DNA of 64,000 nucleotides from an uncultured Candidatus Saccharibacteria bacterium (GTDB lineage: Bacteria > Patescibacteriota > Minisyncoccia > Phycocordibacterales > UBA918). This document shows positions 1,964 through 60,653 of this stretch, piece by piece. Below the pieces are notes generated by a model that saw only the letters and a list, made by a program, of their open reading frames with translations, made no database searches and was not told where the DNA came from. A program made the position numbers and the translations under genes. The stretch covers positions 1,521 to 65,520 of the forward strand of contig CAZYTF010000001.1 in NCBI GenBank assembly GCA_964649535.1, read 5' to 3'. The stretch's first letter is position 1, and every line of letters starts with the position of its first letter.

Positions 1964-3724
1964 ATGAGATTATTGGAACATGGTACCATAGCTTTCATGG
2001 TTAACTACAGAGTGGCAGATGCTGCCCCCAAAGAGGTCAAAGAAATTCTGTTTGAGTATAGTCCTTTGGTGCAACAATTGCTCTATTCTCGGGGTATTGT
2101 AACGGTCAATGAGGCTCAATCTTTTTTAAATCCCTCATATGAAACTGATTTGCATGACCCGTTCCTTTTGCATGATATGGATATAGCAGTCACGCGAATT
2201 CTTGATGCAATGAAGAAAGATCAGAAGGTAGTTATTTATAGTGATTACGACTGTGATGGAATTCCGGGAGCTGTCATTCTCCATGATTTTTTTAAAATGG
2301 TTGGCTTTGGTAACTTCACTAACTATATCCCCCATAGACACTATGAAGGATTTGGCTTCAGTACCTACGCAGTGGGGAAGCTGTCTGAGGATGCTGTAGA
2401 GCTCATCATTACTATTGACTGTGGGACAACTGACGTTGAAGCTGCGGCACTTGCTAAAGAGAAGGGAATTGATGTCATTATTACTGACCATCATGAACCT
2501 AAACAATCTGAAAAAAAAGAACTAATGTTTCCTCAGGCGCATGCTATTGTGAATCCAAAGATTGGCGATACGTATCCGTTTGGAGGCTTGTGTGGAGCTG
2601 GCGTTGTTTTTAAGCTGGCTCAAGCGCTCATTGCTAAAGGTGTTCAAGAGCACATGTTTGAAATAAAACCAGGCTTGGAAAAGTGGTGGCTCGATATGGT
2701 GGGTATTGCAACTATCGCAGATATGGTGCCACTTACAGGTGAAAATCGTGCACTTGCGTATTATGGACTTCAGGTGCTGAGGAAGTCCCGACGTCCAGGG
2801 CTGCAGCAGCTTCTTCGCAAACAAGGGGTTCAACAAAGGTCACTGACCGAAGACGATATTGGATTTACTATTGGCCCTCGCATTAATGCGGCCTCAAGAA
2901 TGGATAATCCTGAAGATGCGTTTTGTCTGCTCACAACAACCGATGAAGGAGATGCAGGAGCCAGGGCAGCGCATTTGGAAAAATTGAATAATGAACGGCG
3001 AGGTCTCGTTGCTGCAATGACTAAAGAAGCGCATAAGCGACTTAAAGATATTGTTGAGGTACCTGATGTGCTGGTGATGGGAAATCCTGATTGGCGCCCT
3101 GCGTTGGTTGGACTTGTTGCGAATAAGCTGGCGGAAGAATATAAACGCCCGGCGTTCTTGTGGGGACGAGATGGAAATGGGGTAATAAAAGGTTCGTGTC
3201 GCTCAGACGGGCGGGTGAGCGTTGTGCGTCTTATGGAGGGTGTCACAGATCATTTTGATGAGCACGGTGGACACCATCAATCTGGTGGATTTAGTGTAGT
3301 AGAAGGTTCCATACATACCTTCTCGAAAGCACTTAATGACGCCTATGTTGCTTTGGGCGAAGGAGCTCTGATAGATGAAGAGTTACTCGTGGATCTTTCA
3401 TTGGAACTTCACGACATAGATACTGCCTTTTTGCGTGAACAAGTGAGTCTTTCGCCATTTGGTGTACATAACCCAAAGCCATTGTATGAGTTTAAAGATA
3501 TCGAGCCAACTTCGGTAGATATTTTCGGGAAAACAAAAGAACATACAAAACTTTTGTTCGAAACAGCAGGAATCGCTCGTGAAGCAATTGCCTTTTTTCG
3601 TTTGCCAGGACAGTTCTGTGCGGAACCAAAAGTGGGCCAAAAGCTAACGCTTTTGGCCCACTTAGAGCAGTCTTTTTTCATGGGGCGCCAACAAACTCGC
3701 TTACGCATCATAGATATTGTATAG
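1964..3724 (+). CDS. recJ: Single-stranded-DNA-specific exonuclease RecJ (DHH/DHHA1)
   Basis: 586 aa with DHH motifs (VVIYSDYDCDGIPG, ITDHHEP), GGH and a DHHA1-like C-terminus. The exact start is uncertain; the gene is divergent from the HIT gene with an 11-nt gap. Confidence 0.85.
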   Translation: MRLLEHGTIAFMVNYRVADAAPKEVKEILFEYSPLVQQLLYSRGIVTVNEAQSFLNPSYETDLHDPFLLHDMDIAVTRILDAMKKDQKVVIYSDYDCDGIPGAVILHDFFKMVGFGNFTNYIPHRHYEGFGFSTYAVGKLSEDAVELIITIDCGTTDVEAAALAKEKGIDVIITDHHEPKQSEKKELMFPQAHAIVNPKIGDTYPFGGLCGAGVVFKLAQALIAKGVQEHMFEIKPGLEKWWLDMVGIATIADMVPLTGENRALAYYGLQVLRKSRRPGLQQLLRKQGVQQRSLTEDDIGFTIGPRINAASRMDNPEDAFCLLTTTDEGDAGARAAHLEKLNNERRGLVAAMTKEAHKRLKDIVEVPDVLVMGNPDWRPALVGLVANKLAEEYKRPAFLWGRDGNGVIKGSCRSDGRVSVVRLMEGVTDHFDEHGGHHQSGGFSVVEGSIHTFSKALNDAYVALGEGALIDEELLVDLSLELHDIDTAFLREQVSLSPFGVHNPKPLYEFKDIEPTSVDIFGKTKEHTKLLFETAGIAREAIAFFRLPGQFCAEPKVGQKLTLLAHLEQSFFMGRQQTRLRIIDIV

Positions 3725-4554: not shown

Positions 4555-6162
4555 ATGCGTGGTGTATTTTTTTATGTTGCTGTCATAGGATTAGTGTTGG
4601 GTATTTTTGCACGTTCTCTGTATGAGTTTGGGGTAGAGAGTATTGCCTGGATATTGTTTCTAAGTTTCACTGCGGTAGTTATTTGGAAAAGAAGTACCTT
4701 AGTTGCCAGGGAGGAAATTAGTTTTGAAAACAAGTCTTCATGGAATCAGCACTCTTCATTGTCGTTCGTTTTGTTGTGTAGCATCTTCATGCTTTGCATG
4801 TCACTTGGGGCGTTGCGGATGGAAGTAGCCAATTGGAAAGATGGTCAGAGTCAGTTTCTGTCTTCAGTTGGAAAAGAAGTTGCTTTTAGAGGGGTTGTAC
4901 AAAGAGAGCCAGATATTAGGGAAAATGCGACACATCTCTATGTGCGTGTAGATACAGAAATTGTATTGGTGACTACGGACAGGTTTGCAAATATACGTTA
5001 TGGTGATGAGCTTTTTGTGACGGGGAAGCTCATGGAGCCCTCCTCATTTGAAACAGACTTAGGCCGCACTTTTAATTACCCAGGATATTTGAGGGCACGA
5101 GGTGTTGCGTACATGATGCAGTATGCAGACATCGAAAAAGTTTCTTCCGGAAAGGGAAATCGTGTTGTCTCGGCACTTTTGTCTTTTAAGATGCGTTTCA
5201 TGGAGAATATTGAAACGGTGCTACAGGAACCACATGCGGGGCTTTCAGAAGGATTGCTTCTCGGAGTGAAACGTGCACTTGGAGAAGATCTTGAAACTGT
5301 CTTTAGGAAAACTGGCATAATCCATATTGTTGTACTCTCTGGCTATAACATCATGCTTGTTGTAGCGTTTGTCATGTATGTGCTCGCATTTCTTTTGCCA
5401 ATGCGCGCACGTCTTGTGTTTGGAATTGTCGCAGTGTCTGCTTTTGCGCTTATGGTTGGACTGAGTGCAACGGTCGTTCGCGCCAGTATTATGGCGGCAC
5501 TCGTTTTGGTTGCACGTTCGTTTGGTCGAACCTATACCGTTATGCGTGCACTTATGCTTGCTGGCCTTGTGATGCTTTTCATTAATCCCTACTTACCTGT
5601 GTATGATACGGGTTTTCAGCTTTCATTTGTCGCGACGCTTGGACTGATACTGGTTGCTCCGGTTATAGAGGCACGACTTCATCTCGTGCCAACAGTAATT
5701 GGTCTACGTGAATTCCTTACCGCGACACTAGCTACACAACTTTTTGTGATGCCAATATTGCTATACCAAATCGGTGAGTTTTCTGTGGTCTCAGTGGTGG
5801 TGAATGTACTTGTCCTCCCAATGGTTCCTGTTGCGATGCTTTTAACTTTTGCAGCTGGCATGCTTGTGTTTGTTTCTCATACACTTGCATTGCCGATAGC
5901 GTTTGTGGCATACGGGTCACTGACATACATAATTTCTGTAGCAACATTCTTTGCTGCACTCCCGTTCGCATCATTTGTTGTTCCCACATTCCCTTTTGTG
6001 GGTGTGCTTGTTGCGTATGGTGTCCTTGGTTACGGACTTTATTATTTTTCTCATGTTAAAAAAGATACTAAAGATACTCAGACGTTCTCGGAGTGGACGA
6101 TAGAGGAGGCTGCAGATGTAGAAAGAGAAAAAGAAAAGCCTCTGCCTGTGTTCTTTCGGTAG
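4555..6162 (+). CDS. comEC: ComEC/Rec2 competence channel protein (DUF4131 plus Competence domain; no MBL domain)
   Basis: 535 aa polytopic membrane protein. Has an N-terminal OB-like region and the competence-domain motif (IIHIVVLSGYNIM, many TM helices). It ends before any beta-lactamase-fold domain. Confidence 0.75.
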   Translation: MRGVFFYVAVIGLVLGIFARSLYEFGVESIAWILFLSFTAVVIWKRSTLVAREEISFENKSSWNQHSSLSFVLLCSIFMLCMSLGALRMEVANWKDGQSQFLSSVGKEVAFRGVVQREPDIRENATHLYVRVDTEIVLVTTDRFANIRYGDELFVTGKLMEPSSFETDLGRTFNYPGYLRARGVAYMMQYADIEKVSSGKGNRVVSALLSFKMRFMENIETVLQEPHAGLSEGLLLGVKRALGEDLETVFRKTGIIHIVVLSGYNIMLVVAFVMYVLAFLLPMRARLVFGIVAVSAFALMVGLSATVVRASIMAALVLVARSFGRTYTVMRALMLAGLVMLFINPYLPVYDTGFQLSFVATLGLILVAPVIEARLHLVPTVIGLREFLTATLATQLFVMPILLYQIGEFSVVSVVVNVLVLPMVPVAMLLTFAAGMLVFVSHTLALPIAFVAYGSLTYIISVATFFAALPFASFVVPTFPFVGVLVAYGVLGYGLYYFSHVKKDTKDTQTFSEWTIEEAADVEREKEKPLPVFFR

Positions 6163-23871: not shown

Positions 23872-24197
23872 TTATGTTTGCAATAATAAAAGGTTATATA
23901 GCGTATATAAAAGATAATCCTGAGGGCTTTTGGTTTAAACGAAAAGCATACGGCTATGGTTGGACGCCAGCAACAATAGAAGGTTGGCTTGTGACACTCG
24001 GTTCTTTTCTCTTTATACTCGGCATTGTGTTGCGAGCTGACCGTCTGGAAATTAAAGAAAGTGAAGCGCTTATACAAGTAGTTATCCCGATGTTTACGGT
24101 GATAGGGTTTCTTATTTTGATTTGTTTAAAGACAGGAGAGTCTCCAAAGTGGCAGTGGAAATTGCCAAAAAAATATTTCGAAGACACTAAAGATTAG
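23850..24197 (+). CDS. Small membrane protein, unknown function
   Basis: Two predicted TM helices. The start codon is ambiguous. Confidence 0.35.
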   Translation: MFTRSSIIMFAIIKGYIAYIKDNPEGFWFKRKAYGYGWTPATIEGWLVTLGSFLFILGIVLRADRLEIKESEALIQVVIPMFTVIGFLILICLKTGESPKWQWKLPKKYFEDTKD

Positions 24198-26275
24198 ACT
24201 GCTTGCCATTTTTTTAAAAATTTTGATAGTACAAGTGAGGCAACAAAGATGACTACCGAAAGACCAAGATATTTTGGGTCGAGGGTATTAAATGATATTC
24301 CATCCATTTTGAATGATTCAATATCAAGTGATGCGCCGATTGAAACAAAAGTTGCGGTGCCCAAAAGAATCCCCACAAAAGTCGCTGCAATAAATGGAAC
24401 AAATGCAGTCTTTAGTATCCCCGCAATATAACTCACACCATCAAATGGCAGGAAGATAAGTCGCATGGTTAGTATTGAAATGAATGTATTTTTTTGGAGA
24501 GAGGTAACCCAATTCCCAATGATTGAATCTTCTGGAGATAATCCCTTTCCAAAAAAACGCCCAACGGCATACGCAACACCTGAAGATAAAGTTGCTGCGA
24601 GTATGGTAAGTACAGTACCGCCCCAGAAGCCAAAAAATATACCCGAAAGTATCGTGAGTGCTGTGGCAGGGAAGAAGGTAAGTGGTCGTAGCGCATATAC
24701 CAGCACATAAAGCAGTGGTCCCCAGATGGTCATGGTGATGAAGTCAAAAATCATCAGCGCTGTTTCTGTCGTACCCATTCCATGTGCAGTTTTATAAATA
24801 TAAAGCTGCAAAAGACCCATAAGCCATAGAGCTCCTACAAGAATTTTAGGAGTGTGTTTTTTGAGTAGATATAAAATGTCTGATTTTAAATTTGAAATTT
24901 GCTGGGCAAAGAAATGATCACCTGCTTTCTTGACGACAAGTGAGTACGTTGGATATGCATACATAATGTTGCGCAAACTCCACATGGAAATCTTTTTATC
25001 TAGAGCAAGTGTAAAAATTGATATGAGTTCACCTGCGGATGGTCCGATTATGTTCGCTCCAAGCACGGCCCCATTAAGCCTCTTTGCATACACGACGAGA
25101 AGCCCATCTGTGTCGCTATCTGTTTGAGCTCTATCGTTTTCTAGGAAAGGAACCTCAATGCGCATGACTTCTTTTTCCGTATATTTTTGAAGTGCGTCTT
25201 GGTATGACATGCCGACTTGTGCGATTTCTGGTTCAGTATAGGTTACTTTTGGAACTGCTTTTTTATTGTCTGCACGTAGGAATCCCTTTGAGACAACATG
25301 TGTAACAACTTGCCGTGCGCTATCGTTTGCCGTGTGCGTAAATTTTAAACGTTGTGCAATATCACCAACAGCGTATACATGTTTATTTGAGGTGCGGTGC
25401 TGTTTGTCGACTTGGATGCCGTATGTATCTGCTGCAATTCCTGCGGTGTCTAATCCTTTTGGGAAATTGGGCAAACGACCAACTGCATAGAGGATTTTGT
25501 CATACGCGACACGTACTTCAGTGAGTGTCGATTCGTTACCGTTTTCCTTGATCTCAAATAGGGCTTGTTTGTTTTCGACTTCTTTTATAAACGCATTGAG
25601 GTGTATGGTTATTCCTAAATTGGTGAAAACTTTTTGGATAATAGGCGATACTGCTTCGTCTTCGAGTCGCGCAAAACGGTCGTTTACATCGGCAATGGTT
25701 ACGTTACTCCCAAGCATTGCAAACGCTTGTCCCATCTCCATGCCAATCGGTCCTGCACCTACGATGAGTAATCGTTCGGGAACGGTTTCTAAATCAAAGA
25801 TATTTTGATTTGTGAGAATGTCGTTCTGGCTAATTCCAGGGACGTTAATCATTCGTGGGCTTGAGCCGGTCGCAATGACGGCATGTTTGTAACCAAACTC
25901 TGATTCTTCAATTTTGATAGTGCATGGTGCAACAAATTCCGCTTCTCCAAATTCAACGTCAATACCTTGAGCACGAAACGCCTCAGGAGTTTCGTGCTCC
26001 AAAATACCTTCAACCTTACTTCGTACATATACAAAAGCATTCGTGCGGTATGCTTCATTTTTTTTGTTTTTACCAGAGATAGTGAGTGCACTATGGAATG
26101 ATTTTGCATGATGTAGTAATGCTTTAGACGGTATACACCCGGAGTTGGTGCATTCTCCTCCCATATGTTCTTGTTCTACAAGCAATGTTTTTCTTCCAAT
26201 TTTAGCGAAACCGGTAGCGGCAGTAAGTCCGCCTGAGCCTGCACCAATCACCACAACATCGTAGTCTTTTTTCAT
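24194..26275 (-). CDS. Fusion protein: N-terminal FAD/NAD(P) pyridine-nucleotide-disulfide oxidoreductase (lipoamide/mercuric-reductase-like) plus C-terminal DedA/TVP38 (SNARE-associated) membrane domain
   Basis: DYDVVVIGAGSGG and the redox-active GGECTNSGCIPSK disulfide motif at the N-terminus. The C-terminal roughly 230 aa are polytopic with the DedA-like segment FPATALTILSGIFFG. Confidence 0.8.
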   Translation of the reverse strand: MKKDYDVVVIGAGSGGLTAATGFAKIGRKTLLVEQEHMGGECTNSGCIPSKALLHHAKSFHSALTISGKNKKNEAYRTNAFVYVRSKVEGILEHETPEAFRAQGIDVEFGEAEFVAPCTIKIEESEFGYKHAVIATGSSPRMINVPGISQNDILTNQNIFDLETVPERLLIVGAGPIGMEMGQAFAMLGSNVTIADVNDRFARLEDEAVSPIIQKVFTNLGITIHLNAFIKEVENKQALFEIKENGNESTLTEVRVAYDKILYAVGRLPNFPKGLDTAGIAADTYGIQVDKQHRTSNKHVYAVGDIAQRLKFTHTANDSARQVVTHVVSKGFLRADNKKAVPKVTYTEPEIAQVGMSYQDALQKYTEKEVMRIEVPFLENDRAQTDSDTDGLLVVYAKRLNGAVLGANIIGPSAGELISIFTLALDKKISMWSLRNIMYAYPTYSLVVKKAGDHFFAQQISNLKSDILYLLKKHTPKILVGALWLMGLLQLYIYKTAHGMGTTETALMIFDFITMTIWGPLLYVLVYALRPLTFFPATALTILSGIFFGFWGGTVLTILAATLSSGVAYAVGRFFGKGLSPEDSIIGNWVTSLQKNTFISILTMRLIFLPFDGVSYIAGILKTAFVPFIAATFVGILLGTATFVSIGASLDIESFKMDGISFNTLDPKYLGLSVVIFVASLVLSKFLKKWQAV

Positions 26276-32433: not shown

Positions 32434-33549
32434 ATGAAGACACGCTTAATTGAGTTTGGAGTGTTTGTTATTGCAATTGTGCTCATTTGGCATTGGTATG
32501 TTGGTTTGTTTTGGCAACCTTTGTTTTTTGCTGTGCTTCTGGCGGTAACCTTTCATGATTTTTTTGAACGGTTGTGTCGTCAAGTATGGATCAGTGATTC
32601 TATTGCTGCACTGATGGTTGCTATGATTGCGTTGCTGATCCCGGTCATTCCGGCAGTCTTCGCAGTCTACTATTCTATTGGTGTTGCTGATCGTCTGATT
32701 AGTGCACTACGCATACCGACATCGGATGAATATTTGTGGTTGTCAGAAATCGTAACAGAACTTAATGAAAGAGTTCCATTTCTGGCTGAATATCTCCAAC
32801 TTGATGGAGGAGGTATTGATTCGTTTACGAAACTGTTGACGAGTAACTGGAATGGAGTTGCGTCTGTCAGCCGATCAATTATTGGCACTGTATATACAAG
32901 CTTTGCGGGTATAATGTTTGGCATTGTTGTCGCACTCTTGGCTCTCTACTACTTTCTGAAAGATGGGAAGAAGTTGCTTGCTTTCGTAAAAAAGGCAGCG
33001 CCAGTGCGTGTCGAGTTCGTGACTCGCGCATTCGATGAGTTTGTGCAGATGACGCGTGCAATGGTTAAAGTGACCATCATCGTTGGGTTTGTGCAGGGTG
33101 CTATTGGTGGGGCAGCCCTTTGGTTTGTCGGCACGCCGTCTGCACTCATGTGGACATTTGCCATGATGCTGCTTTCCATGATGCCCATACTGGGTGCTGG
33201 TATAGTGCTTGTTCCGACATCAATCATCTACTTCTTCACAGGAGACATGGTGAGTGGCTCGGTTGTGTTGGGGACATTTGCGTTTGTGTCGGTGGTGGAT
33301 AATATCCTGAAGCCGAAAATCATTGGCGGTGATATGTCACTGAATGAAGGTTTGATTTTGCTTTCGGTTGTTGCTGGCTTGGCAACATTTGGAGCTATCG
33401 GCATGTTTGCTGGACCAATTTTGTTTGCATTGCTTACTGCAATGATTGATGTCTATCTGCGCATGGCTAGTAGTACGTTTGAATCTAAGCCGTGGCAGCC
33501 GTATACGCCACCGCCACCTGTTTTTCGTACACACAAACATCGTGTGTGA
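32434..33549 (+). CDS. AI-2E family transporter (PerM/YdiK-like) membrane protein
   Basis: 371 aa with about 8 TM helices and the length and Gly-rich helices typical of UPF0118/AI-2E. Family call from topology and composition. Confidence 0.55.
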   Translation: MKTRLIEFGVFVIAIVLIWHWYVGLFWQPLFFAVLLAVTFHDFFERLCRQVWISDSIAALMVAMIALLIPVIPAVFAVYYSIGVADRLISALRIPTSDEYLWLSEIVTELNERVPFLAEYLQLDGGGIDSFTKLLTSNWNGVASVSRSIIGTVYTSFAGIMFGIVVALLALYYFLKDGKKLLAFVKKAAPVRVEFVTRAFDEFVQMTRAMVKVTIIVGFVQGAIGGAALWFVGTPSALMWTFAMMLLSMMPILGAGIVLVPTSIIYFFTGDMVSGSVVLGTFAFVSVVDNILKPKIIGGDMSLNEGLILLSVVAGLATFGAIGMFAGPILFALLTAMIDVYLRMASSTFESKPWQPYTPPPPVFRTHKHRV

Positions 33550-36383: not shown

Positions 36384-36411
36384 AAAGCCGGCGCTTTGCG
36401 CCGGCTTTTTG
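36384..36411 (+). terminator. Intrinsic terminator immediately after rplB
   Basis: aagccggcgc-tttg-cgccggctt followed by TTTTT. Confidence 0.6.
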
Positions 36412-36499
36412 TGTATAAAGTGTTGCTACTTTTTTACTAGTTTGACGCAGGATTTTTTCTATATATATTAAAAATACTTGGCAATTGTTCTGCCAAGTA

Positions 36500-36754
36500 T
36501 CACTTCTTCTCCTTCACGCAGAGGAGGGGGCCTTTATGAGCTCTGAGGTATTTTTTATTTTCTGAACACTTTGCCCATGCGCGCATTGATCGCCTTCCGC
36601 GCAGCCAAGCTTCTTTTTCGCTTAGTGCGTTAGTGACGAGGACAACTTCATTGCTCTTGTCGCTGTCAGGAACACGGTCGCCGCTCAAAAGGTCCTGTTT
36701 TATGACCACGGCAACAAAACGTTTTGGTTGTTTGAACGCAATAACATTTTTCAT
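36500..36754 (-). CDS. Small protein (84 aa), possibly toxin-like (weak BrnT-like C-terminal pattern)
   Basis: AGGAG ribosome-binding site. EVVLVTNALSEKEAWL loosely resembles the RIISAR-AT..E..Y motif of DUF497. Confidence 0.35.
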   Translation of the reverse strand: MKNVIAFKQPKRFVAVVIKQDLLSGDRVPDSDKSNEVVLVTNALSEKEAWLRGRRSMRAWAKCSENKKYLRAHKGPLLCVKEKK

Positions 36755-36842
36755 GAGGTTCTCCTAAGAACTTTTTAAATATTCAAACACGTCTATCTAA
36801 ATTTGACAATAGCTGTTGCAAAGTATAAGAGAATCTTCTTCC

Positions 36843-37160
36843 CTATACCCCTGGCTTCCGTTCTCTTTCCTTGAAACTGAAGTTCTGCAGTTTCTTGCTG
36901 TTTTGAAGCGCATGAAACACTTCCCTTGGTTTGTCTGCGTGTACCGCAATTTTTTGGACACTCTGACCTGTGATGATGAGTTCTATGCCGGCTGTTGTGT
37001 ACGCAGCTGTTACAAAGCGAGAGCTTGATCCTTTTCGACTTTGTGTTTTTATCATGCCAGGAGCAATCATTTTGACGCCATTAAGCCGTTTTAGTACAGA
37101 TACAACTAACGCAGCGGTTTCAGTCAGTGTTGTATGTTCTTTTCCACGGGGTTTTGCCAT
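36843..37160 (-). CDS. Hypothetical small protein (105 aa)
   Basis: Basic N-terminus MAKPRGKEH. No Shine-Dalgarno sequence. Weak HU/IHF-like pattern only. Confidence 0.3.
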   Translation of the reverse strand: MAKPRGKEHTTLTETAALVVSVLKRLNGVKMIAPGMIKTQSRKGSSSRFVTAAYTTAGIELIITGQSVQKIAVHADKPREVFHALQNSKKLQNFSFKERERKPGV

Positions 37161-37186
37161 AGGGGGAGCATAGCATAAAAAATGTA

Positions 37187-37222
37187 AAAAAAGCCGCGAA
37201 TTTTCGCGGCTTCACTCTTTTT
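37187..37222 (-). terminator. Terminator downstream of the membrane-protein gene
   Basis: aagccgcgaa-tttt-cgcggctt followed by a U-run on the minus strand. Confidence 0.5.
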
Positions 37223-37227
37223 GTGCA

Positions 37228-37557
37228 TTATCGTTTAAATGCCGGCCACTTTGTGAACAGCGCTTTGAAACTTGTTGAAAAAGCGGTTTCAGATTCGTCT
37301 GATAGTTTCCTCTTATGAAACCATATAATCCAAGCTATTATGGCAAAAATAGAAGATATGAACCAGTATGAAACAAAAACCAAAAATAGTCCTCCGTAAA
37401 GCAGTACGGTACTCGGCCTACGTAACACTTCATTTGTATTTATGTCGTGTAACACTTGGGTAGTCATTGACGCTGCTAACACTAGCAAAAACACCCAGTT
37501 TATAATCAGCCTGACCACATGGTTTTGAGGCATTGCGGAACTTTTTCTCGGTTTCAT
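37228..37557 (-). CDS. Small membrane protein (109 aa)
   Basis: Three predicted TM helices. Confidence 0.4.
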   Translation of the reverse strand: MKPRKSSAMPQNHVVRLIINWVFLLVLAASMTTQVLHDINTNEVLRRPSTVLLYGGLFLVFVSYWFISSIFAIIAWIIWFHKRKLSDESETAFSTSFKALFTKWPAFKR

Positions 37558-37628
37558 GTAAGAACTCCTTTCAATAGTTAGTTAACTCTTTTTCCAGTAT
37601 CGAGTCAAGCCTCTTGTGCTTCAATTTT

Positions 37629-37657
37629 ATTGACTTTTGCCCTTATTTCCCGTACTA
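37629..37657 (+). promoter_or_regulatory. Sigma70-like promoter for rpsS and downstream genes
   Basis: TTGACT, a 17-nt spacer, then TACTAT. About 160-nt leader before rpsS. Confidence 0.4.
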
Positions 37658-37816
37658 TAGCGCACGTTCTAACCTCGTTTTGGATTCGCTCCTGGTAGGG
37701 CAATCCCTAACAAAAACCGTTACACTTTGAGCGTTTTACGCTCGAGGGCAGAATAAAATTATTAGTTTGTGGCTACTGTAAGACCACTGGTTTTTATGTA
37801 GTCGTATTTCATTCTT

Positions 37817-52890: not shown

Positions 52891-53235
52891 CTACTTAGTC
52901 TGTTCAATAACTCGTGCAAATGATTCAGGGTTTTCTTTTGCGAGAGTCGCAAGTACCTTTCGGTTCAGTCCAATTTCTTTGTCAGAAAGTGCCTTGATAA
53001 AGCGACTGTACTTCATGTCATAATTTTGAAGTGCAGCATTGATTCGCGTTGTCCAAAGACGACGGAAGTCACCTTTCTTATCTTTACGGTGATCAAAGGC
53101 GTGAAGTTGTGCATGGTATATCGCCTCACGTGCCTCACGTTTCTTGGTGCTGCGACCAAATCTGTAGCCTTTAACTTGTTCGAGAATATTTCGACGACGC
53201 TTTTGCGCCATGATTCCTCCTTTTACTCGTGACAT
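52891..53235 (-). CDS. rplT: 50S ribosomal protein L20
   Basis: RVKGG..AQKRRRNILEQVKGYRF...RRLWTTRINAA. Confidence 0.95.
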   Translation of the reverse strand: MSRVKGGIMAQKRRRNILEQVKGYRFGRSTKKREAREAIYHAQLHAFDHRKDKKGDFRRLWTTRINAALQNYDMKYSRFIKALSDKEIGLNRKVLATLAKENPESFARVIEQTK

Positions 53236-53261
53236 AATTGTGTAATTAGCTAATAAAATAC

Positions 53262-53453
53262 TTACGCACCTGTACCTGGCAGAAAACGACGTGTAATCCG
53301 CTTTGAAAGTGTCAGTAATTGTGTACGCTTTCGACGTAATCGTTGCTGACCTGTTTGTCGAGCATTAAAGTGATTTTGGCCTGGCTTTCGAGCAACAAGC
53401 TTCCCATTTTTGGTCACTTTAATCCGTTTTGTGTATGACTTGTTTGTTTTCAT
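53262..53453 (-). CDS. rpmI: 50S ribosomal protein L35
   Basis: 63-aa basic protein, KTNKSYTKRIKVTKNGKL. Confidence 0.9.
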   Translation of the reverse strand: MKTNKSYTKRIKVTKNGKLVARKPGQNHFNARQTGQQRLRRKRTQLLTLSKRITRRFLPGTGA

Positions 53454-53572
53454 AATATTCGCTTTATAGGCAAAAAGTGGTGCAAATATAACCTATTTTG
53501 GTTTGTTTGTCCACTCTTTTTAGATTCCAAAAGAGTAATTATTGGAATTGATATATGCAAGGGTCGAAATGA

Positions 53573-54244
53573 TTAGACCATTCCGTCCTCAAGAAGTTCG
53601 TCGAGAGACTTTTTCTTTGACTTCGTGCCCCCTGAAGCTTCATTTACTTTCTCAACATCTTTCGGCTTTTCGTCATCTTTAATAATCTTAGGTCCTTTTA
53701 CGCTTTTCCCTAGTCGCTCAAGTGTGCACGTAAATCCTTTAGGGCTTTTTTTAATCTCGTCTGCAAGTTTATATTCTGCTGGAATAATCTTAAGAAACCG
53801 TTCGAGTCGTTCTTTGAGGAACGCTGGCTCCATGTATTTGTATCTGCCCCAGAGGAATAGGTCTACTTTTACGCGGTGACCATCGTTCAGCCATTCGGAA
53901 GCGCGCTTTGCTTTGAGTGCCTGGTCGTGCTCTCCAGTTCCTATCTTCACTTGCACGCTCTTTGTTTCAGTGACATGAGACTTTGCTTTCACCTCACTTG
54001 CTTTACGCTTTGTTTCGTACCGGTATTGGCCGAAATCCATTATCTTTGCTACTGGAGGATTTGCTTTTGGGGAAATTTCAATAAGATCAAGGTTTGCTTC
54101 GTCAGCTGCTTTGAGCGCTTCTTCACGTGTGATAACGCCAAGATTTTCGCCAGACCCACCAATAACACGCATTTCTTTTGCGCGAATAGCGTCATTAATA
54201 CGTGTCCTGTTATCTGGTCTGAATGGTCTCTGTGGTTTGCTCAA
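53573..54244 (-). CDS. infC: Translation initiation factor IF-3 with a Lys-rich C-terminal extension
   Basis: RINDAIRAKEMRVIG...EEALKAADEANLDLIEISP. Non-ATG (TTG) start, as is common for infC. Confidence 0.9.
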   Translation of the reverse strand: MSKPQRPFRPDNRTRINDAIRAKEMRVIGGSGENLGVITREEALKAADEANLDLIEISPKANPPVAKIMDFGQYRYETKRKASEVKAKSHVTETKSVQVKIGTGEHDQALKAKRASEWLNDGHRVKVDLFLWGRYKYMEPAFLKERLERFLKIIPAEYKLADEIKKSPKGFTCTLERLGKSVKGPKIIKDDEKPKDVEKVNEASGGTKSKKKSLDELLEDGMV

Positions 54245-54385: not shown

Positions 54386-54820
54386 TTAGCCTAAAAATTT
54401 TGCTGCTGTGTAGGCACCTATCCAGCCTGTTGTCGAAATAATTCCGCTCACAATAAGAATTAGTTTTTCGTTTTTTGACAGAGATGAAAATGGTTGTTCT
54501 TGTGCCAAACGCATATGCTTCCCAATAAAAATAGCATTAACCACCAGCATCACAATAAAGAGTATTTTTAATCTAAAAGCAGTGAGAGACAGGAGATACG
54601 CTGGATATGTCGAGAACATTAAAGCTCCAGCTATGATTGTAATAATTAATCCAATCCATATAGCTGTGTGTAGATAGGACATGCGCTTTTGGGGAAGTGT
54701 GTGCATTTTTCCAAAAAGCCACAACGCACCATGTGCATCAGCAATGATGACTAGTAAAAGGGTGAGTGTTACAGAGAACACGTGGATAGGGAGAAGTGGT
54801 AGTGAAAATATAAAATCCAT
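54386..54820 (-). CDS. Membrane protein, unknown function
   Basis: 144 aa with four TM helices. Confidence 0.45.
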   Translation of the reverse strand: MDFIFSLPLLPIHVFSVTLTLLLVIIADAHGALWLFGKMHTLPQKRMSYLHTAIWIGLIITIIAGALMFSTYPAYLLSLTAFRLKILFIVMLVVNAIFIGKHMRLAQEQPFSSLSKNEKLILIVSGIISTTGWIGAYTAAKFLG

Positions 54821-54919: not shown

Positions 54920-55363
54920 TTAAGATAATTTCTTTTGATGACAGGTGGTACATTTACAACCCCCAGGACCAATAATGTCTCTCATGTAGTCTTTCCCGTA
55001 ATTGTAAGTAAACTCCTCCCCAGCTTTAATATTTTTGCAAGCCCGAATATAAATTCGGTCGTCATCTTCATCATGCTCGGCTTCGCAATTTGGCTTGCAT
55101 GCATGATTTATATAGCGTGCTGTGTTTTTTCTGTTTTTGCCATCAATTACGAGCGTGTCAGTAACTTCGAAAAGATATCTCCCCCCTCGTCGGTTTGCTT
55201 CATCTTCACTAATTCTGTCCCCTGTATACTCAATAATGAGTTGTTCTTTTTGTATAGCTTCCCCGGCAAAAAGACCCAAGCCAGCACTCGATCGTTTTAC
55301 GCTAACCTTCGGTCGGTATAAATCGTCAAACATAATGCGGTTGAGTATAGCAAACAAAAACAT
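54920..55363 (-). CDS. SET-domain protein (putative lysine methyltransferase) with a post-SET Cys cluster
   Basis: GLGLFAGEAIQKEQLIIEYTG, RYINHACKPNC and EEFTYNYG are the SET signatures. C-terminus CKCTTC. Confidence 0.75.
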   Translation of the reverse strand: MFLFAILNRIMFDDLYRPKVSVKRSSAGLGLFAGEAIQKEQLIIEYTGDRISEDEANRRGGRYLFEVTDTLVIDGKNRKNTARYINHACKPNCEAEHDEDDDRIYIRACKNIKAGEEFTYNYGKDYMRDIIGPGGCKCTTCHQKKLS

Positions 55364-55374
55364 CTCTCACAGGG

Positions 55375-55402
55375 TTGACTGTAAAATTGTGTATTGTACA
55401 CT
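55375..55402 (+). promoter_or_regulatory. Sigma70-like promoter for the NrtR-like gene (near-leaderless)
   Basis: TTGACT, a 16-nt spacer, then TACACT, with the ATG 8 nt downstream. Confidence 0.35.
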
Positions 55403-55409
55403 AAGATAC

Positions 55410-56081
55410 ATGCATAAAGCCCCAGAAGAATTCAGATTTGCTGCAATAGCGGTAGATATTGTTGTTTTTGGTATTAAAGATAATACGCTTTGTTTGTTGC
55501 TTGACGAAGTCAACAGACCTCCTCATTATCAAAATATAGACGCTTTTATTGGTGGTCTTATTGGTGTTGATGAAACTGCAGACGATGCAGTTGTTCGTCA
55601 TTTGCGCGACAAGGCTGGTATTAAAAATGTGTATACAGAACAGCTCTATACATTTAGTAACATTAACCGTGACAAACGGAACCGAGTTATTTCAGTGAGC
55701 TATATGGCAATTGTCCGGCCAGATGTTGTTGAGCGTTATGTGCACTCGAGTGCTCACTGGACTCCTGTAGCTCCTTTATTAAAACTTGCGTATGACCATG
55801 ATGAAATGCTGAAAGTCGGCTTAGCTCGTTTGCAAGGTAAGTTGGGGTACACAACAATCGTGCAGTATCTTTTGCCTACAGAGTTTACGCTTACAGAAAT
55901 GCAACAAGTATACGAGCTTGTTACTAAAAAAGAATTTGATAAACGGAACTTCAGAAAGAAAGTGCTGGCACTAGACATTATTAAAGAGACAGGGAATGTG
56001 CAAGAGGGAGTTAAAAATAGACCTGCAGCACTCTATGTTTTCAGAAATAAAAACGTTCAAGAACTTCAATTATTTGTATAA
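55410..56081 (+). CDS. Nudix-related transcriptional regulator (NrtR-like: Nudix domain plus C-terminal winged helix)
   Basis: N-terminal Nudix fold with a degenerate box (IGGLIGVDETADDAVVRHLRDKAGI). The C-terminal roughly 90 aa resemble the NrtR wHTH. NAD-salvage genes lie nearby. Confidence 0.6.
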   Translation: MHKAPEEFRFAAIAVDIVVFGIKDNTLCLLLDEVNRPPHYQNIDAFIGGLIGVDETADDAVVRHLRDKAGIKNVYTEQLYTFSNINRDKRNRVISVSYMAIVRPDVVERYVHSSAHWTPVAPLLKLAYDHDEMLKVGLARLQGKLGYTTIVQYLLPTEFTLTEMQQVYELVTKKEFDKRNFRKKVLALDIIKETGNVQEGVKNRPAALYVFRNKNVQELQLFV

Positions 56082-56083
56082 AA

Positions 56084-56120
56084 AGAGTGCCGTCACCCAT
56101 TTATGGGTAACGGCACTTTT
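56084..56120. terminator. Bidirectional terminator
   Basis: agtgccgtcaccca-ttta-tgggtaacggcact. Confidence 0.55.
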
Positions 56121-56123
56121 GTT

Positions 56124-57113
56124 TCATGCTGCTTTAGAAGCTTTTCTAAGTACATATTTGTCAAGTACCTTTCGAGCATCAAATACAAATTGATCGGGAG
56201 GTATTTTCTCCCAGTCAGCAGCGGATGCTGTACAAGGTTCAGTTTTTCCTGGCTCGCCACTGTTCATCGTTCCAAATACTCTGGAGCGATAGAGAAGGGA
56301 GACTTTGTCACCCCGAGGGTCACGTCCGTCATTGCAAAGTGTCGTGATGAACTCGGATTCGTGTATAGACAAGCCTGTCTCTTCAAGTTGTTCCCACATC
56401 ACTGTGTTTTGAGCTGACACATGAGGGTCGATATGTCCGCCAGTGAAGGCGAAGCCGGGAGGGTTGTTCAGTCGCTTGACCATAACAAATTCACCCGACT
56501 CTGTTTCTGCAATGTTGTCTACGCAGTATGAGACATCAGCGCGCAGTGTGTTGCCGATTGTTGACAGCACACTGTACACAGGATAGTTGCCGAGCTTTGC
56601 TCCTCGTCCATTCAGGAAGGGGAGTTCGATGACGGTCATAAACGCTGCGACAGTGCCACCGAGCTTTTCAATCAAACGACATCCGGCTTCTGCAGTGCCA
56701 CCGGTCGCCAGTAAGTCATCAATGAGGACGACAGCTTTTCCGGCAAGATCCATCTCATTGAGATAAAGCTCATCGAGACCGTACTCTTTTTGATACGTGA
56801 CGAACACAGTGGGTGGTGGCAACTTCCCCTTCTTCCGAAGCTGCAAGAAGCCAATACCGAGACGTTCTGCAACTGCAGCGCCGAAGATAAAGCCACGAGC
56901 GTCAAAACCTCCGATGTAATCAATCGTACGACCGTGTTTCTTTGACCAGCTTGCGCACCGTTCTGCGAAGAGATCGGTGACAAGTGTCAAAGCACCTGGA
57001 ACTCCCGTCAGGTCTTGTGAATTCCAATAGAGTATCCCTGGCTTTGGAAAGTCGGGAATTGGAGTAAACAAATGTGGCAAGTCTTGCACAGTGAGTTTTG
57101 TCATGTTCTTCAT
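56124..57113 (-). CDS. apt: Fusion: adenine phosphoribosyltransferase (N-terminal) plus Nudix hydrolase (C-terminal)
   Basis: APRT motifs DFPKPGILYWN, ARGFIFGAAVA, VVLIDDLLATGGT. The C-terminal roughly 150 aa carry a Nudix box-like GGHIDPHVSAQNTVMWEQLEETGL. Confidence 0.75.
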   Translation of the reverse strand: MKNMTKLTVQDLPHLFTPIPDFPKPGILYWNSQDLTGVPGALTLVTDLFAERCASWSKKHGRTIDYIGGFDARGFIFGAAVAERLGIGFLQLRKKGKLPPPTVFVTYQKEYGLDELYLNEMDLAGKAVVLIDDLLATGGTAEAGCRLIEKLGGTVAAFMTVIELPFLNGRGAKLGNYPVYSVLSTIGNTLRADVSYCVDNIAETESGEFVMVKRLNNPPGFAFTGGHIDPHVSAQNTVMWEQLEETGLSIHESEFITTLCNDGRDPRGDKVSLLYRSRVFGTMNSGEPGKTEPCTASAADWEKIPPDQFVFDARKVLDKYVLRKASKAA

Positions 57114-57209
57114 CCTTTCAATGAACCATTCCGTAGCTACTGTACCTTAAGTTTTTAAAAGATAAAGCAATAGAGTACAAATCGTAACAAAAAAGATACA
57201 CTACATGAA

Positions 57210-57240
57210 ATAAAAAAAGCGGCACTGTATGTGCCGCTAC
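57210..57240 (-). terminator. Intrinsic terminator downstream of prs
   Basis: agcggcac-tgtat-gtgccgct followed by a U-run on the minus strand. Confidence 0.55.
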
Positions 57241-57271
57241 AGGCCTTCTTCTGTAAGCGTTTGAGTCTTTA

Positions 57272-58354
57272 TCAGTCAGTTGCTGCCCACTCGTCTTTAA
57301 CTCCTCCGATGCTCCCATCAACAGTGATTAGTTTTAGAACCAACTCTGCCATGAATTTTGCATAGGTGACTCGCACAATGAGTGGGTTATCCTTGTAGTA
57401 TTTTTTTTCACGCGGCAAGGTGTCCAGCGTAAAGATTTTAAATTTTGCTGCTGCTATCTTTGCTTCAGCAGAAGTCAATTTCCCCTTTTTGTCACCATCA
57501 ACGCGTTTCGGACTCATGACATTGTGTGCAACAGCACCGTAGCCTTTCTTTGCTCCCATTTTTAAGGCAAGCATGAGTGAATCTAGTAACGTTCCCATCG
57601 TACCGCCAATATCATCGTAGCCAATCATCGTGTGACTTGTATCACCTACAATTTTGATTGCCTTGCTTCCGCTTTTGTCACGACGCTTGTCAACAATGGC
57701 GATATCGAGACCGGGGTCTGTTTTTTCTGCACAATCACGTCCACGCTTTGACCCTCCAACATCCGTAGCGAGTATGCGCAAAATTCCTTCCTGAATCTCT
57801 TTTGCGAAATACTTCCTGAAAAATGGAGCAAAAATGACATGTGCAGGAATATTAAGTACTTCAATTGTGTCATAGAAGCCCGCAATTTGTGGTGCGTGCA
57901 AGTCAAAGGTGACGAGGTATTTTATGATCCCAAACCCTTCGAGTTTGCGTGCCAAGTCTTTTGCAGTAAGTGGCTGACGGTACATCGGGCGTTCTTGGCG
58001 TGAGTAGGGGAGATAGGGCGCGACGAGAAAAACCCTACCAACCCCCGATGCTTTCAGTGCCCCAAGAGCTATCTCAAGTTCTTGAATGCGGACGTTGATG
58101 TCGCCAGTAAAGTTCCTCGGAGTAAAGTCCCAAAAAAGAATTATTAGCTTGTTGCGAACATTTGGTTTGATGGTTGTGCAGAGTTCCCCGTCACTAAAGA
58201 CGTCAATGTCAATAACGCAGTCACGCGTGTATTCAATCGGGACACCTCTGTGTTGGAGCTGCCGAGCAATTTTTTTTGTGACAGGGTCCATGTTTCTGGA
58301 CGTCATTATCACAATGCCGTCTTTGCACCAGGAAAGTAGTTGGGGGATAGCCAT
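57272..58354 (-). CDS. prs: Ribose-phosphate pyrophosphokinase (PRPP synthetase) with a C-terminal extension
   Basis: VIMTSRNMDPVTKKIA, DGE, a PRPP-binding loop DKRR..SG, and DDIGGTMGT. Start at ATG 58354 with a GGAG ribosome-binding site. Confidence 0.85.
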   Translation of the reverse strand: MAIPQLLSWCKDGIVIMTSRNMDPVTKKIARQLQHRGVPIEYTRDCVIDIDVFSDGELCTTIKPNVRNKLIILFWDFTPRNFTGDINVRIQELEIALGALKASGVGRVFLVAPYLPYSRQERPMYRQPLTAKDLARKLEGFGIIKYLVTFDLHAPQIAGFYDTIEVLNIPAHVIFAPFFRKYFAKEIQEGILRILATDVGGSKRGRDCAEKTDPGLDIAIVDKRRDKSGSKAIKIVGDTSHTMIGYDDIGGTMGTLLDSLMLALKMGAKKGYGAVAHNVMSPKRVDGDKKGKLTSAEAKIAAAKFKIFTLDTLPREKKYYKDNPLIVRVTYAKFMAELVLKLITVDGSIGGVKDEWAATD

Positions 58355-58459
58355 ATCATTCTCCTTTTCAATGAACTCGTTTCTCCAATACTCTACACAA
58401 CCATGCCTAAAAGTACAGGAGTGATTGATAATTTGTAACAAAAAGAATACACTTGAATA

Positions 58460-59194
58460 ATGCAATTAAAAGACATATTTAAACGACTTGGGTACCCTAA
58501 ACATTCCGACACAATCTACGAGGTCCTTACACAAAGCAAGGAGACACTTTCGGTGTCTGCACTTGCAGAACAGTGTGGTGTTTCTCGAGTCGTTGTATAT
58601 CGCTGTGTTGAAAAACTTGAAGAGGATGATTTGATAGTGAGAGACATAGTCGGCCGCCGAACGTACTATAAAACTTCAAGTCCTCATAAACTTACGGAGG
58701 CAATGCGGTGTGTAGAAGATGAGTCAGCACAAGTGGTGAAACAACATATACAAACACGCGAAAAAGATGTGCCACACAATGTGCGATTCCTTCATGGTGC
58801 TCGTGGCATTCGCGAAGCATTTGATGATGTCATTACGCATACTAGGAAAGGGGATACATTCTTCCGATATACGTCTGAGCGAGATCTTGAAAAGGTTAAT
58901 GCCTACCTATCGAAGGAATATCGACTACAACGTGACCAGAAGAAGTTAGAGCGACTGGTAATCAGTAATCCAGTTTCTGGTACACAAAAGAAATCGAGAC
59001 TTGAACGTTTTATTAAATATATTCCTACCGACGCAGATCAGTTTGAGCACAATATTGTTGAACTAATTTACGGCAGTCGCGTCTGTATCATTGACCTCAA
59101 CCTTGAAGAAGTGATGATTATTGATAATCAGCAACTAGCAGACTTTCAAAAGGTGATATTCAAACTACTCTACAAACGCCTCTCAAACGAGTAG
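58460..59194 (+). CDS. TrmB-family transcriptional regulator
   Basis: N-terminal HTH (LSVSALAEQCGVSRVVVYRCVEKLEEDDLI) plus a TrmB-like C-terminal domain. Confidence 0.55.
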   Translation: MQLKDIFKRLGYPKHSDTIYEVLTQSKETLSVSALAEQCGVSRVVVYRCVEKLEEDDLIVRDIVGRRTYYKTSSPHKLTEAMRCVEDESAQVVKQHIQTREKDVPHNVRFLHGARGIREAFDDVITHTRKGDTFFRYTSERDLEKVNAYLSKEYRLQRDQKKLERLVISNPVSGTQKKSRLERFIKYIPTDADQFEHNIVELIYGSRVCIIDLNLEEVMIIDNQQLADFQKVIFKLLYKRLSNE

Positions 59195-59264: not shown

Positions 59265-60653
59265 ATGGAAAACGTTGTTACGCTGCCAGTATTAAAAGGG
59301 CAAGGGTTTATCCTGCGCCATTTTGAATCAAACGACGCTGCTTCGCTGCAGCATCACCTCAACGATGAACGAGTGGCTCGCAAAGTGAGTCATATACCGT
59401 TTCCGTATACCATCGACCATGCACGAGATTGGATTTCTCGTACTGAAAGTTCAGTGTGCCTTAATTCCAATCGTATCGATTTTGTAATCGACATTGGCGG
59501 CGAAGCCGTGGGCTCAGTTGCCTTCATCAATATCGAAGGACATAAAGCTCAGTTGAGTTACTGGCTTAGTCCTGACTACTGGGGCAAGGGTATTGTCTCT
59601 GAGGCAGTGAAATTACTGCTCAGCTTTGGCTTTGTGATGCTGCCGCTTGAACGTGCCTATGGGTACGTATATAGCGAAAATACTGCTTCCGCCCGTGTGC
59701 TCCAAAAGTGTGGCTTTCGTTTTGAAGGTACACATAATCGAGAGTGGCGTAAGGTGATTGACGAAGAAGTGAAATTCTTCGATTCAAACTTTTATGCCGT
59801 ACTCCGGTCTGACGTGTTTCGGGAAGTTCGTGATGTGGTTGTATTCAAGTCTGACACTGAGGAGTCCGATCTCGCAAGTAAGGGGTTGGCACGTCAGCTC
59901 AGTGAGGTTGGTGTTAAGGTTCAGATAGCACATCGTGCCGATGAACTCACCGCTCCATTCAGTCTTGCCATTTCTGTGGGTGGTGATGGACAAATGATGA
60001 GAACTGTCCACACCATGTCGCCACTTTCTGTGCCAACTCTGGGCCTTAACGCCGGTAATGTTGGGTTTTTGACGAGTGCGAGAGTTAATCCCCTTGGGGT
60101 GAACCAGTCAGTGTTTCAGCGGATAGTTCAGGGAAACTTTCAGGTCGAACAGCGTCTGGGCATTCAATTTGAATTTGAAGGGCAGTCCTATGGCCCATTT
60201 TCTAATGAGGTTTTACTCAAAGTACCCAAGGGTATGGCGAGTTATGTCCTTAGCGTAAACCAAGAACAAGTATATGCGGACATGGCAGCTGACGGTATTC
60301 TTTTGGCAACAGCAACTGGTTCAACTGGATATAACACCGCTGCTGGAGGACCGATTATTTGGCCTGATTCTCGCAGTGTGGTTGCAACCGCTCTGAATCC
60401 GACAACGTTCAATGTGCGTCCGATTGTGTTTGGTCAACTTGCACAAGGAGGGGAAATATCACTTGGCGTAGCGAAACTGCACCATGATATTGAACCAGTT
60501 GTGTCCGCAGATGGAAAAGATCAGCTTGAAGGAAAAGGGTTGCGCTCGGGCGATGGGGTGGTGATACGTAGGTACCCTCGTCCAATGCTCTTTGCAACGT
60601 TTGGAAGTAGTTCATACCTCCATGCATTAAAAGAAAAAAAGGGATTTATGTAA
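59265..60653 (+). CDS. nadK: Fusion: GNAT (RimL-like) N-acetyltransferase plus NAD kinase
   Basis: GNAT motif A (GYWLSPDYWGKGIVSEA) at the N-terminus. NAD kinase motifs GGDGQMM, NAGNVGFL and ATATGSTGYNTAAGGPI at the C-terminus. Confidence 0.75.
   Translation: MENVVTLPVLKGQGFILRHFESNDAASLQHHLNDERVARKVSHIPFPYTIDHARDWISRTESSVCLNSNRIDFVIDIGGEAVGSVAFINIEGHKAQLSYWLSPDYWGKGIVSEAVKLLLSFGFVMLPLERAYGYVYSENTASARVLQKCGFRFEGTHNREWRKVIDEEVKFFDSNFYAVLRSDVFREVRDVVVFKSDTEESDLASKGLARQLSEVGVKVQIAHRADELTAPFSLAISVGGDGQMMRTVHTMSPLSVPTLGLNAGNVGFLTSARVNPLGVNQSVFQRIVQGNFQVEQRLGIQFEFEGQSYGPFSNEVLLKVPKGMASYVLSVNQEQVYADMAADGILLATATGSTGYNTAAGGPIIWPDSRSVVATALNPTTFNVRPIVFGQLAQGGEISLGVAKLHHDIEPVVSADGKDQLEGKGLRSGDGVVIRRYPRPMLFATFGSSSYLHALKEKKGFM

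Follow-up and report, generated by a model that had tools for sequence, protein, structure and literature searches.

A minimal SET-domain protein in a Patescibacteria genome as a probable lysine methyltransferase of an endogenous protein

The SET gene and its surroundings

An open reading frame of 147 codons, counted from the first ATG, occupies 54920..55363 on the minus strand of the window, i.e., the whole stretch of 64 kb that was analyzed. Because the alignment of 52 homologs places the conserved start of the family at the second ATG (M11, nt 55333), with M-x-D-D-x-Y-R-P forming the N-terminus of nearly all of them, the coding sequence of the SET-domain methyltransferase is set to 54920..55333 (minus strand), corresponding to 137 aa from M11 with the stop codon included. 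The length of 147 aa given in the initial annotation thus holds for the open reading frame but not for the protein as it is conserved in the family. Both gene calls, of 137 aa and of 147 aa, exist in databases for exactly this gene, and the 137-aa product (P0001) is present in public collections. The upstream in-frame extension MFLFAILNRI, read from the sequence as ten codons from the alternative ATG (55334..55363, minus strand), showed no conservation upstream of SET in related loci, a similar stretch in one of them (L003) excepted, and is probably a 5' leader or promoter rather than coding sequence. Within these ten codons, TGCTATACT looks like an extended -10 box, which would be compatible with a putative promoter. 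The protein of 137 aa has a mass of ~15.6 kDa and a pI of 6.8, and the GC content of its gene amounts to 41% versus 43% for the window. Contigs from ENA metagenomes, up to 165 kb long, match the window itself at 100% identity, and the protein is also recorded on a contig of 260 kb.

The order of genes on the minus strand is SET, a gene for a 144-aa predicted membrane protein without family assignment (54386..54820), and infC, rpmI and rplT, which together lie downstream of SET at 52891..54244 (Pfam IF3_N/IF3_C, Ribosomal_L35p and Ribosomal_L20). The adjacency to infC-rpmI-rplT that had been described is therefore correct with regard to proximity and common strand, but the membrane protein gene intervenes. 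Beside SET, this latter gene recurs in no more than a handful of very close relatives (L001, L094, L109 and L127). On the other side, a divergent intergenic region of 76 bp (55334..55409) separates SET from the gene for an NrtR-family Nudix/winged-helix regulator (55410..56081, with its ATG at 55410), which is divergent from SET. Beyond NrtR lies a NAD/nucleotide-salvage cluster comprising a phosphoribosyltransferase-Nudix fusion, a PRPP-synthetase-like gene, a wHTH regulator, a GNAT-NAD kinase fusion, a NadD-like gene and NAPRTase, and the remaining window consists mostly of a ribosomal-protein/EF-G/EF-Tu/SecY super-operon region. Co-regulation with NrtR was considered and rejected, as this genome alone has the NrtR gene and the NAD-salvage cluster next to SET. 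A 12-bp near-palindrome in the intergenic region (55392..55403) has five matches in the window, compared to 5.8 expected by chance.

Sequence motifs, predicted fold and family

In agreement with the proposed domain identity, for which the lack of a SET HMM match had been named as the refutation, Pfam SET (PF00856) was hit over profile positions 1-105 of 105 with 89.6 bits (E=2.1e-25), far over the gathering cutoff of 22.4. The SET signatures claimed at first sight (GLGLFA, NHxCxPN and EEFTYNY) are likewise all present in the translated sequence, as is the post-SET CxCxxC cluster, here in the form CKCTTC. GxG, (R)Y-x-NH-x-C-x-PN and E-L-x-Y/F-x-Y can all be aligned with KMT2D/KMT2C. Residue conservation was taken from the alignment of 52 homologs at 69-81% identity; single residues are numbered here in the 137-aa protein and motif ranges in the 147-aa translation. 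The N-terminal SET motif GLGLFA (55265..55282, minus strand, residues 28-33), which contains the GxG of the AdoMet pocket, aligns with GLGLYA of KMT2D/KMT2C, with G18, L19, G20, L21 and F22 being invariant. For the core motif NHACKPN (55088..55108, minus strand, residues 86-92; pseudoknot and AdoMet binding), the counterpart in KMT2D is NHSCAPN; N76, H77, C79, P81 and N82 are invariant, and the Cys of this motif is expected to be the fourth zinc ligand. The C-terminal motif EEFTYNY (54998..55018, minus strand, residues 116-122), to which EELTYDY corresponds in KMT2D, comprises the invariant Tyr as well as the Phe/Tyr-switch position. Here, E107 and Y112 do not vary, conservation of Y110 reaches at least 90%, and in distant representatives the first Tyr position is occupied by Y, F, I, L or V, the second Tyr remaining constant. 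According to published work, the position of the first Tyr of ELTYDY is the Phe/Tyr product-specificity switch in MLL1, and a Tyr at this position weakly suggests a mono- or di-methylating enzyme. In the short post-SET CKCTTC (54941..54958, minus strand, residues 136-141), the presumed Zn site, C126, C128 and C131 are invariant. Further invariant residues are E35, Y36, G38, R49, G50, G51, Y53, L54, F55, R73 and Y74. As seen from the alignments with KMT2D/KMT2C, the invariant residues match the positions that form the AdoMet pocket and the pseudoknot and provide the catalytic Tyr and the zinc ligands in characterized SET enzymes, and all catalytic and structural determinants are held invariant under strong purifying selection.

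All four presumed zinc Cys are thus without exception among the 52 homologs, but their spacing follows CxCxxC and not the canonical CxCxxxxC. This short form occurs well beyond the window gene: among the best 150 50%-identity cluster representatives, 93 carry CxCxxC, while CxCxxH (3), CxCx4H (11) and CxCx4C (6) are found in others. The occasional exchange of Cys for His at the last post-SET position fits a metal ligand; zinc binding by CxCxxC together with the NHxC Cys, and closure of the channel, are assumed. The CxCxxC post-SET is shorter than in any characterized SET protein that was compared. After NHxCxPN, an acidic hairpin loop (CEAEHDEDDD, 55058..55087, minus strand) was recognized in the homolog alignment as specific for the subclade of the window, in which it follows the pattern E-A-E-H-D-E-[DE]-[DE]-D, with A85 and H87 invariant and E84, E86, D88, E89 and D92 at least 90% conserved among the 52 homologs. 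From more distant Patescibacteria SETs the loop is missing, CEIDTPKGRI or similar being found there instead. A docking surface for a basic partner would be a possible function of this loop, which, along with the near-neutral pI, may be regarded as a weak hint at such a partner.

The AlphaFold2 model built on the 52 homologs was confident (mean pLDDT 83, pTM 0.76) and features the SET beta-fold with a knot-like C-terminal threading. Its comparison with the PDB by Foldseek gave 372 matches at E<=1e-3, headed by MLL1, MLL3, MLL4, EZH2 and NSD. Moreover, the family includes tandem double-SET proteins (P0122, 264 aa; P0127, 352 aa; P0222, 335 aa). Read as Rosetta-stone fusions and combined with the analogy to a viral minimal SET, these suggest that the single-domain protein may work as a homodimer.

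The existence of bacterial SET proteins as such has been recognized since about 2003-2007. The statement that they are uncommon proved to be exaggerated, since 1,002 clusters at 90% identity came out of the word-indexed search at E<=1e-3, most of them representing Patescibacteria proteins of 130-145 aa; the best 120 show 68-100% identity and almost all lie in this length range. Likewise, the exhaustive search of a library of 1.84 billion 50%-identity cluster representatives yielded 9,119 representatives at E<=1e-3, 1,095 at E<=1e-10 and 16 at E<=1e-30. Bacterial SET proteins were listed in more than 500 bacterial genomes by a review in 2014 (PMC3980110). Relatives at 45-76% identity in a species-level genome collection belong to MAGs titled Candidatus Kaiserbacteria, Paceibacteria/Paceibacterota, Adlerbacteria, Nomurabacteria, Woesebacteria, Saccharibacteria and Patescibacteria group, with the closest syntenic loci being titled Candidatus Kaiserbacteria, Paceibacteria or Paceibacterota, which speaks for the window stemming from Patescibacteria. 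A few bins labeled Gammaproteobacteria or Kapaibacterium contain relatives of ~50% identity, followed at 38-47% by Burkholderiales (Polaromonas, Rhizobacter, Ralstonia) and Acidobacteria. The SET gene is an uncharacterized member of a known enzyme class and belongs to a large prokaryotic minimal-SET subfamily with the short CxCxxC that is common in Patescibacteria; no paper linking SET domain and Patescibacteria was found in the literature searched. A phage origin of the gene was rejected, as a search of viral contigs with the family patterns gave no SET relatives.

Probable role in the cell

The protein is best explained as a stand-alone, cytoplasmic, AdoMet-dependent protein-lysine N-methyltransferase with little beyond the SET core which acts on an endogenous, probably basic, protein (probability about 0.6). 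The enzyme class by itself, i.e., an active stand-alone AdoMet-dependent protein-lysine methyltransferase, is very probable. As in the homologous KMT2/SET1/EZH2-type enzymes, the knot-like active site would be built from GxG, (R)Y-x-NH-x-C-x-PN and E-E-x-T-Y-x-Y, with AdoMet bound at one face and the substrate lysine entering a narrow aromatic channel from the opposite face, and the C-terminal CxCxxC would bind one zinc ion jointly with the NHxC Cys, closing the channel. In the absence of their partner proteins, KMT2-type SET domains show weak activity, and the stand-alone version may need a partner as well.

Most likely, the substrate would be an abundant endogenous and probably basic protein, e.g., a nucleoid-associated protein or a component of the translation apparatus, a host protein being less likely. 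Host histones on the one hand and ribosomal or DNA-binding proteins on the other had been put forward as an even choice; of these, the host side lost ground, and the evidence leans toward an endogenous cytoplasmic target. An endogenous target is favored because neither a signal peptide nor a hydrophobic N-terminus was found in the SET protein, its pI is 6.8 and the GC content of its gene is typical of the window. It is further favored by the absence of secretion, defense or phage associations: no secretion-system genes were detected within 8 kb on either side of SET, and PADLOC gave no defense match for SET or its 144-aa neighbor, by which a role in a defense system was rejected. In addition, the conservation of SET approaches that of IF3, L20 and RNase J, with 56-76% identity versus 67-85%, 66-81% and 65-75%, respectively, in the same genome pairs, and dN/dS was about 0.11 in the one usable pair, synonymous sites being saturated in four of five pairs. 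Such conservation appears housekeeping-like, unlike that of a fast-evolving effector. The occurrence of relatives in free-living Burkholderiales and Acidobacteria points in the same direction, as do the precedents for endogenous prokaryotic SET targets, namely MC1-alpha, methylated by Go1-SET (PMC3980110), and Hc1, methylated by cpnSET (PMC10117894). No HU-like gene was found in the 64-kb window by tblastn with E. coli HupA as query. Another version, in which the protein would be a conserved housekeeping "writer" of lysine methylation that acts on the nucleoid or ribosome of its own cell, and closely related, as a prokaryotic protein, to the catalytic core of eukaryotic SET1/KMT2 (40% identity), is rather unlikely, but milder and more probable than a transfer of SET into a prokaryotic host.

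The position of the gene might also indicate that SET methylates a ribosomal protein or IF3, L35 or L20 and that its location near infC reflects functional coupling or co-expression, an explanation that we consider unlikely. Ribosomal proteins are basic and often methylated in bacteria, translation genes dominate the window and the minus strand showed no clear intrinsic terminator from SET to infC. Furthermore, infC-rpmI-rplT follow downstream on the same strand in the SET-anchored genome loci of the nine closest lineages (SET identity at least 56%). Avoiding the ascertainment bias of SET-anchored loci, anchoring by IF3 provided 26 metagenome loci (IF3 63-86% identical, at least 6 kb of upstream DNA), 17 of which carry SET upstream of IF3, always on the same strand and 0.5-6.7 kb away; every SET-bearing locus of the clade has SET upstream of infC in this orientation. 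Nevertheless, SET was not found upstream of IF3 in 9 of the 26 loci, and the genes between SET and infC vary by lineage and include an opposite-strand gene in at least five genome loci. Opposite-strand genes and varied inserts over such differing distances argue against a conserved operon. The more distant Patescibacteria SET loci (45-54% identity) have other, unrelated neighbors, none of them carrying infC-rpmI-rplT, and the conservation of RNase J, DUF2238, NDK and MetAP on the other side of the same loci lets shared ancestry account for the synteny. According to the simplest reading, the linkage of SET and infC is a gene order inherited within a single order-level clade and altered by insertions and by occasional loss or relocation; SET-infC-rpmI-rplT represents a clade-specific synteny and does not look like a functional operon. 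ORF clustering across 34 Patescibacteria-type SET loci revealed no neighbor conserved family-wide, and deduction of the substrate by guilt-by-association was abandoned, as the recurrence of infC-rpmI-rplT, RNase J, acetate kinase and phosphoketolase was confined to the subclade of the window. An M15-peptidase-like gene recurs in six other SET loci in both orientations, probably incidentally.

Patescibacteria are widely thought to be attached to host cells, and SET could be an effector that is moved from the epibiont into the host cell and methylates host proteins there. The known hosts of Patescibacteria are prokaryotes without histone H3/H4 tails, and this explanation is regarded as quite improbable. 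Secreted nucleomodulins make up most of the bacterial SET proteins studied by experiment (PMC10117894). Eukaryotic histones are methylated by chlamydial NUE, Legionella RomA/LegAS4, Burkholderia BtSET and Bacillus BaSET, and there is a weak domain-level match of the window protein to the LegAS4 equivalog model. Against an effector stand the missing signal peptide or hydrophobic N-terminus and the lack of secretion genes nearby, the large distance of the LegAS4 match from the model cutoff along with the lack of ankyrin repeats, a conservation near that of IF3 and L20 and the relatives of ~40-46% identity in free-living Burkholderiales and Acidobacteria. Signals of the T3SS/T4SS type may nevertheless be present without being recognizable from the sequence. 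The special case of SET being passed into a bacterial or archaeal host and methylating nucleoid or ribosomal proteins of that host is still more doubtful; if true, a SET-domain effector would for the first time be known to act from one prokaryote on another.

A metabolite rather than a protein lysine may be methylated by a SET fold, as BurB was shown to methylate free methionine (PMC12542666). For the window gene, which adjoins the nucleotide/NAD-salvage cluster in this genome, a corresponding activity on small molecules is very improbable: that adjacency is confined to this genome, and BurB/MSMT, a 172-aa SET-fold methionine S-methyltransferase, is 16% identical to the window protein and ranks below lysine methyltransferases with 35-40% identity. 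The window protein also retains lysine-methyltransferase signatures, i.e., the Tyr pair of ELTYDY and the post-SET Cys cluster which would close the channel. The BurB/MSMT gene is located in a DMSP/malleicyprol pathway cluster, which is absent around the window SET, with no burI/burD/burE-like genes nearby. Finally, a catalytically dead or purely structural, PR-domain-like pseudoenzyme, to which a secondary Pfam match to the PRDM2 PR domain (PF21549; 27.9 bits, just over the cutoff of 27) and the generally poor activity of KMT2-type SET domains alone could be related, hardly deserves consideration in view of the far higher score of the SET model (89.6 bits) and the conservation of AdoMet-binding, catalytic and zinc-ligand residues in 52 homologs (69-81% identity), a pattern of active enzymes.

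Work on bacterial SET proteins has treated them almost exclusively as weapons directed at eukaryotic chromatin. The small size, abundance and strong conservation of the present family and its retention in very reduced genomes suggest a useful endogenous role, and the minimal SET family constitutes a clean and tractable system in which a native substrate of a prokaryotic SET enzyme may be sought. With ~15.6 kDa, a shortened SET-I and the short CxCxxC, the window protein comes close to a minimal catalytic unit but still shares 35-40% identity with the SET1/KMT2 core, which makes it relevant to ideas deriving eukaryotic histone methyltransferases from prokaryotic SET proteins. Current understanding is left unchanged, as domain, chemistry and bacterial occurrence were already known and will not surprise the specialist.

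Comparison with known SET-domain enzymes

By sequence, the best matches in the PDB were the catalytic SET/post-SET domains of KMT2D, KMT2C, yeast SET1, EZH1/2, NSD1-3 and ASH1L, with E values of about 3e-18 for the single sequence and 7e-25 for the family profile and with all catalytic motifs aligned. Both sequence and structure identify the KMT2/SET1 enzymes (Trithorax/COMPASS; yeast Set1 6ven_N, MLL1 7w6a_C and MLL4 4z4p) as the closest catalytic domain. In contrast to their multidomain architecture with N-SET/WIN and WDR5-RbBP5-ASH2L-type partners, the window protein consists, within its 137 aa, of SET core and post-SET only and features no N-SET, WIN motif or other domains. Its SET-I is ~8 residues shorter than that of KMT2D, as seen from an alignment gap, its post-SET reads CxCxxC instead of CxCxxxxC and an acidic insertion of two residues is found in the hairpin after NHxCxPN. 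As bacteria possess neither WRAD partners nor histone H3, the substrate must differ from that of KMT2/SET1.

The kinship with the Legionella effector that had been considered found no support. LegAS4/RomA (NCBIfam NF043024) was matched with 37.5 bits compared to an equivalog cutoff of 550 bits and over profile positions 26-140 of 439, the window protein lacks ankyrin repeats, a nuclear localization signal and a T4SS context, and LegAS4 ranks structurally below the eukaryotic KMT2/SET1/EZH2 enzymes. With regard to size, the protein resembles the chlorovirus vSET and other minimal viral SETs, which with about 116-130 aa are likewise restricted to the SET core. The top match in a library of viral structures was M1IDW8, a chlorovirus-type minimal SET of 116 aa (TM 0.70/0.81, 24% identity). 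In work of Manzur et al. from 2003, vSET is said to function as a dimer, to which the tandem double-SET fusions in the family of the window protein form a parallel.

The small SETs of Burkholderiales and Acidobacteria (134-194 aa), a group including BtSET relatives, share 38-47% identity over the whole SET core and a similarly small size with the window protein. NHACKPNC occurs in every locus retrieved from this group, but this peptide belonged to the search patterns, so that its constancy reflects ascertainment. Compared with the window protein and its CxCxxC, these relatives have longer C-terminal tails and a different post-SET, i.e., the canonical CxCxxxxC in Burkholderiales and CxCxxxC in Acidobacteria. 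Among chlamydial SETs, the homolog NUE is in addition a secreted protein with host histones as its target. As a functional model for the proposed endogenous lysine methyltransferase, we favor Go1-SET of Methanosarcina mazei and cpnSET, small prokaryotic SETs likened to the window protein by their described function, which is directed at the organisms' own DNA-binding proteins.

Genes flanking the SET gene

The gene for the minimal SET-domain methyltransferase is adjoined by an NAD/nucleotide-salvage cluster (window positions 55410-58465), which comprises an NrtR-family regulator with Nudix and NrtR winged-helix domains (55410-56081, + strand), a phosphoribosyltransferase-Nudix fusion of 329 aa (56124-57113, - strand) and a PRPP-synthetase-like protein matching the N-terminal domain model only (57272-58465, - strand). 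Beyond position 58465, the salvage cluster continues with a wHTH regulator, a NadD-like gene and NAPRTase. Among the SET loci compared, the adjacency of NrtR and SET was found in this genome only. The cluster also includes a single ORF of 462 aa (59265-60653, + strand), in which a GNAT acetyltransferase domain at the N-terminus (Acetyltransf_3, E 4e-28) is joined to a complete NAD kinase part (NAD_kinase and NAD_kinase_C); this fusion looks like an unusual architecture.

Between SET and infC, a predicted multi-pass membrane protein of 144 aa is encoded (54386-54820, - strand). No family could be assigned to it, its sole Pfam match being a sub-threshold one to Cyt_bd_oxida_II, and it recurs beside SET and infC in very close relatives only (loci L001, L094, L109, and L127).

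Ribosomal-protein operon and further genes of the window

The S10 ribosomal-protein operon of the window is interrupted at two places, namely by an AI-2E family transporter gene between rpsJ and rplC (32434-33549, + strand) and by a gap of ~1.4 kb between rplB and rpsS (about 36400-37800), inside which two small ORFs, 84 and 105 aa in length, lie on the opposite strand and have no Pfam match. Despite abundant translation genes, ARAGORN detected no tRNA or tmRNA genes in the 64 kb of the window (1-64000). Genes for RecJ (1964-3724) and ComEC (4555-6162) are present as well. Furthermore, an ORF of 693 aa (24194-26275, - strand) encodes both a pyridine-nucleotide-disulphide oxidoreductase (Pyr_redox_2/Pyr_redox_dim) and a membrane domain of the VTT/DedA type, a combination that likewise appears to be an unusual fusion.

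Relatives of the SET protein

Relatives with ~50-52% identity also occur in bins not labelled Patescibacteria, namely on a 509-kb contig labelled Candidatus Kapaibacterium (L023) and at two loci labelled Gammaproteobacteria (L017 and L018). The post-SET cysteine cluster reads CxCxxC in L018 and L023, whereas L017 features CxCx4H. These occurrences suggest that the gene was transferred horizontally or, alternatively, that the contigs were mis-binned.

Among the closest cluster representatives, three natural proteins carry two SET copies in tandem (P0122, 264 aa; P0127, 352 aa; P0222, 335 aa), and the longer proteins P0206 and P0215 likewise contain two copies each. The existence of such natural tandem double-SET proteins suggests that single-domain minimal SETs work as dimers.
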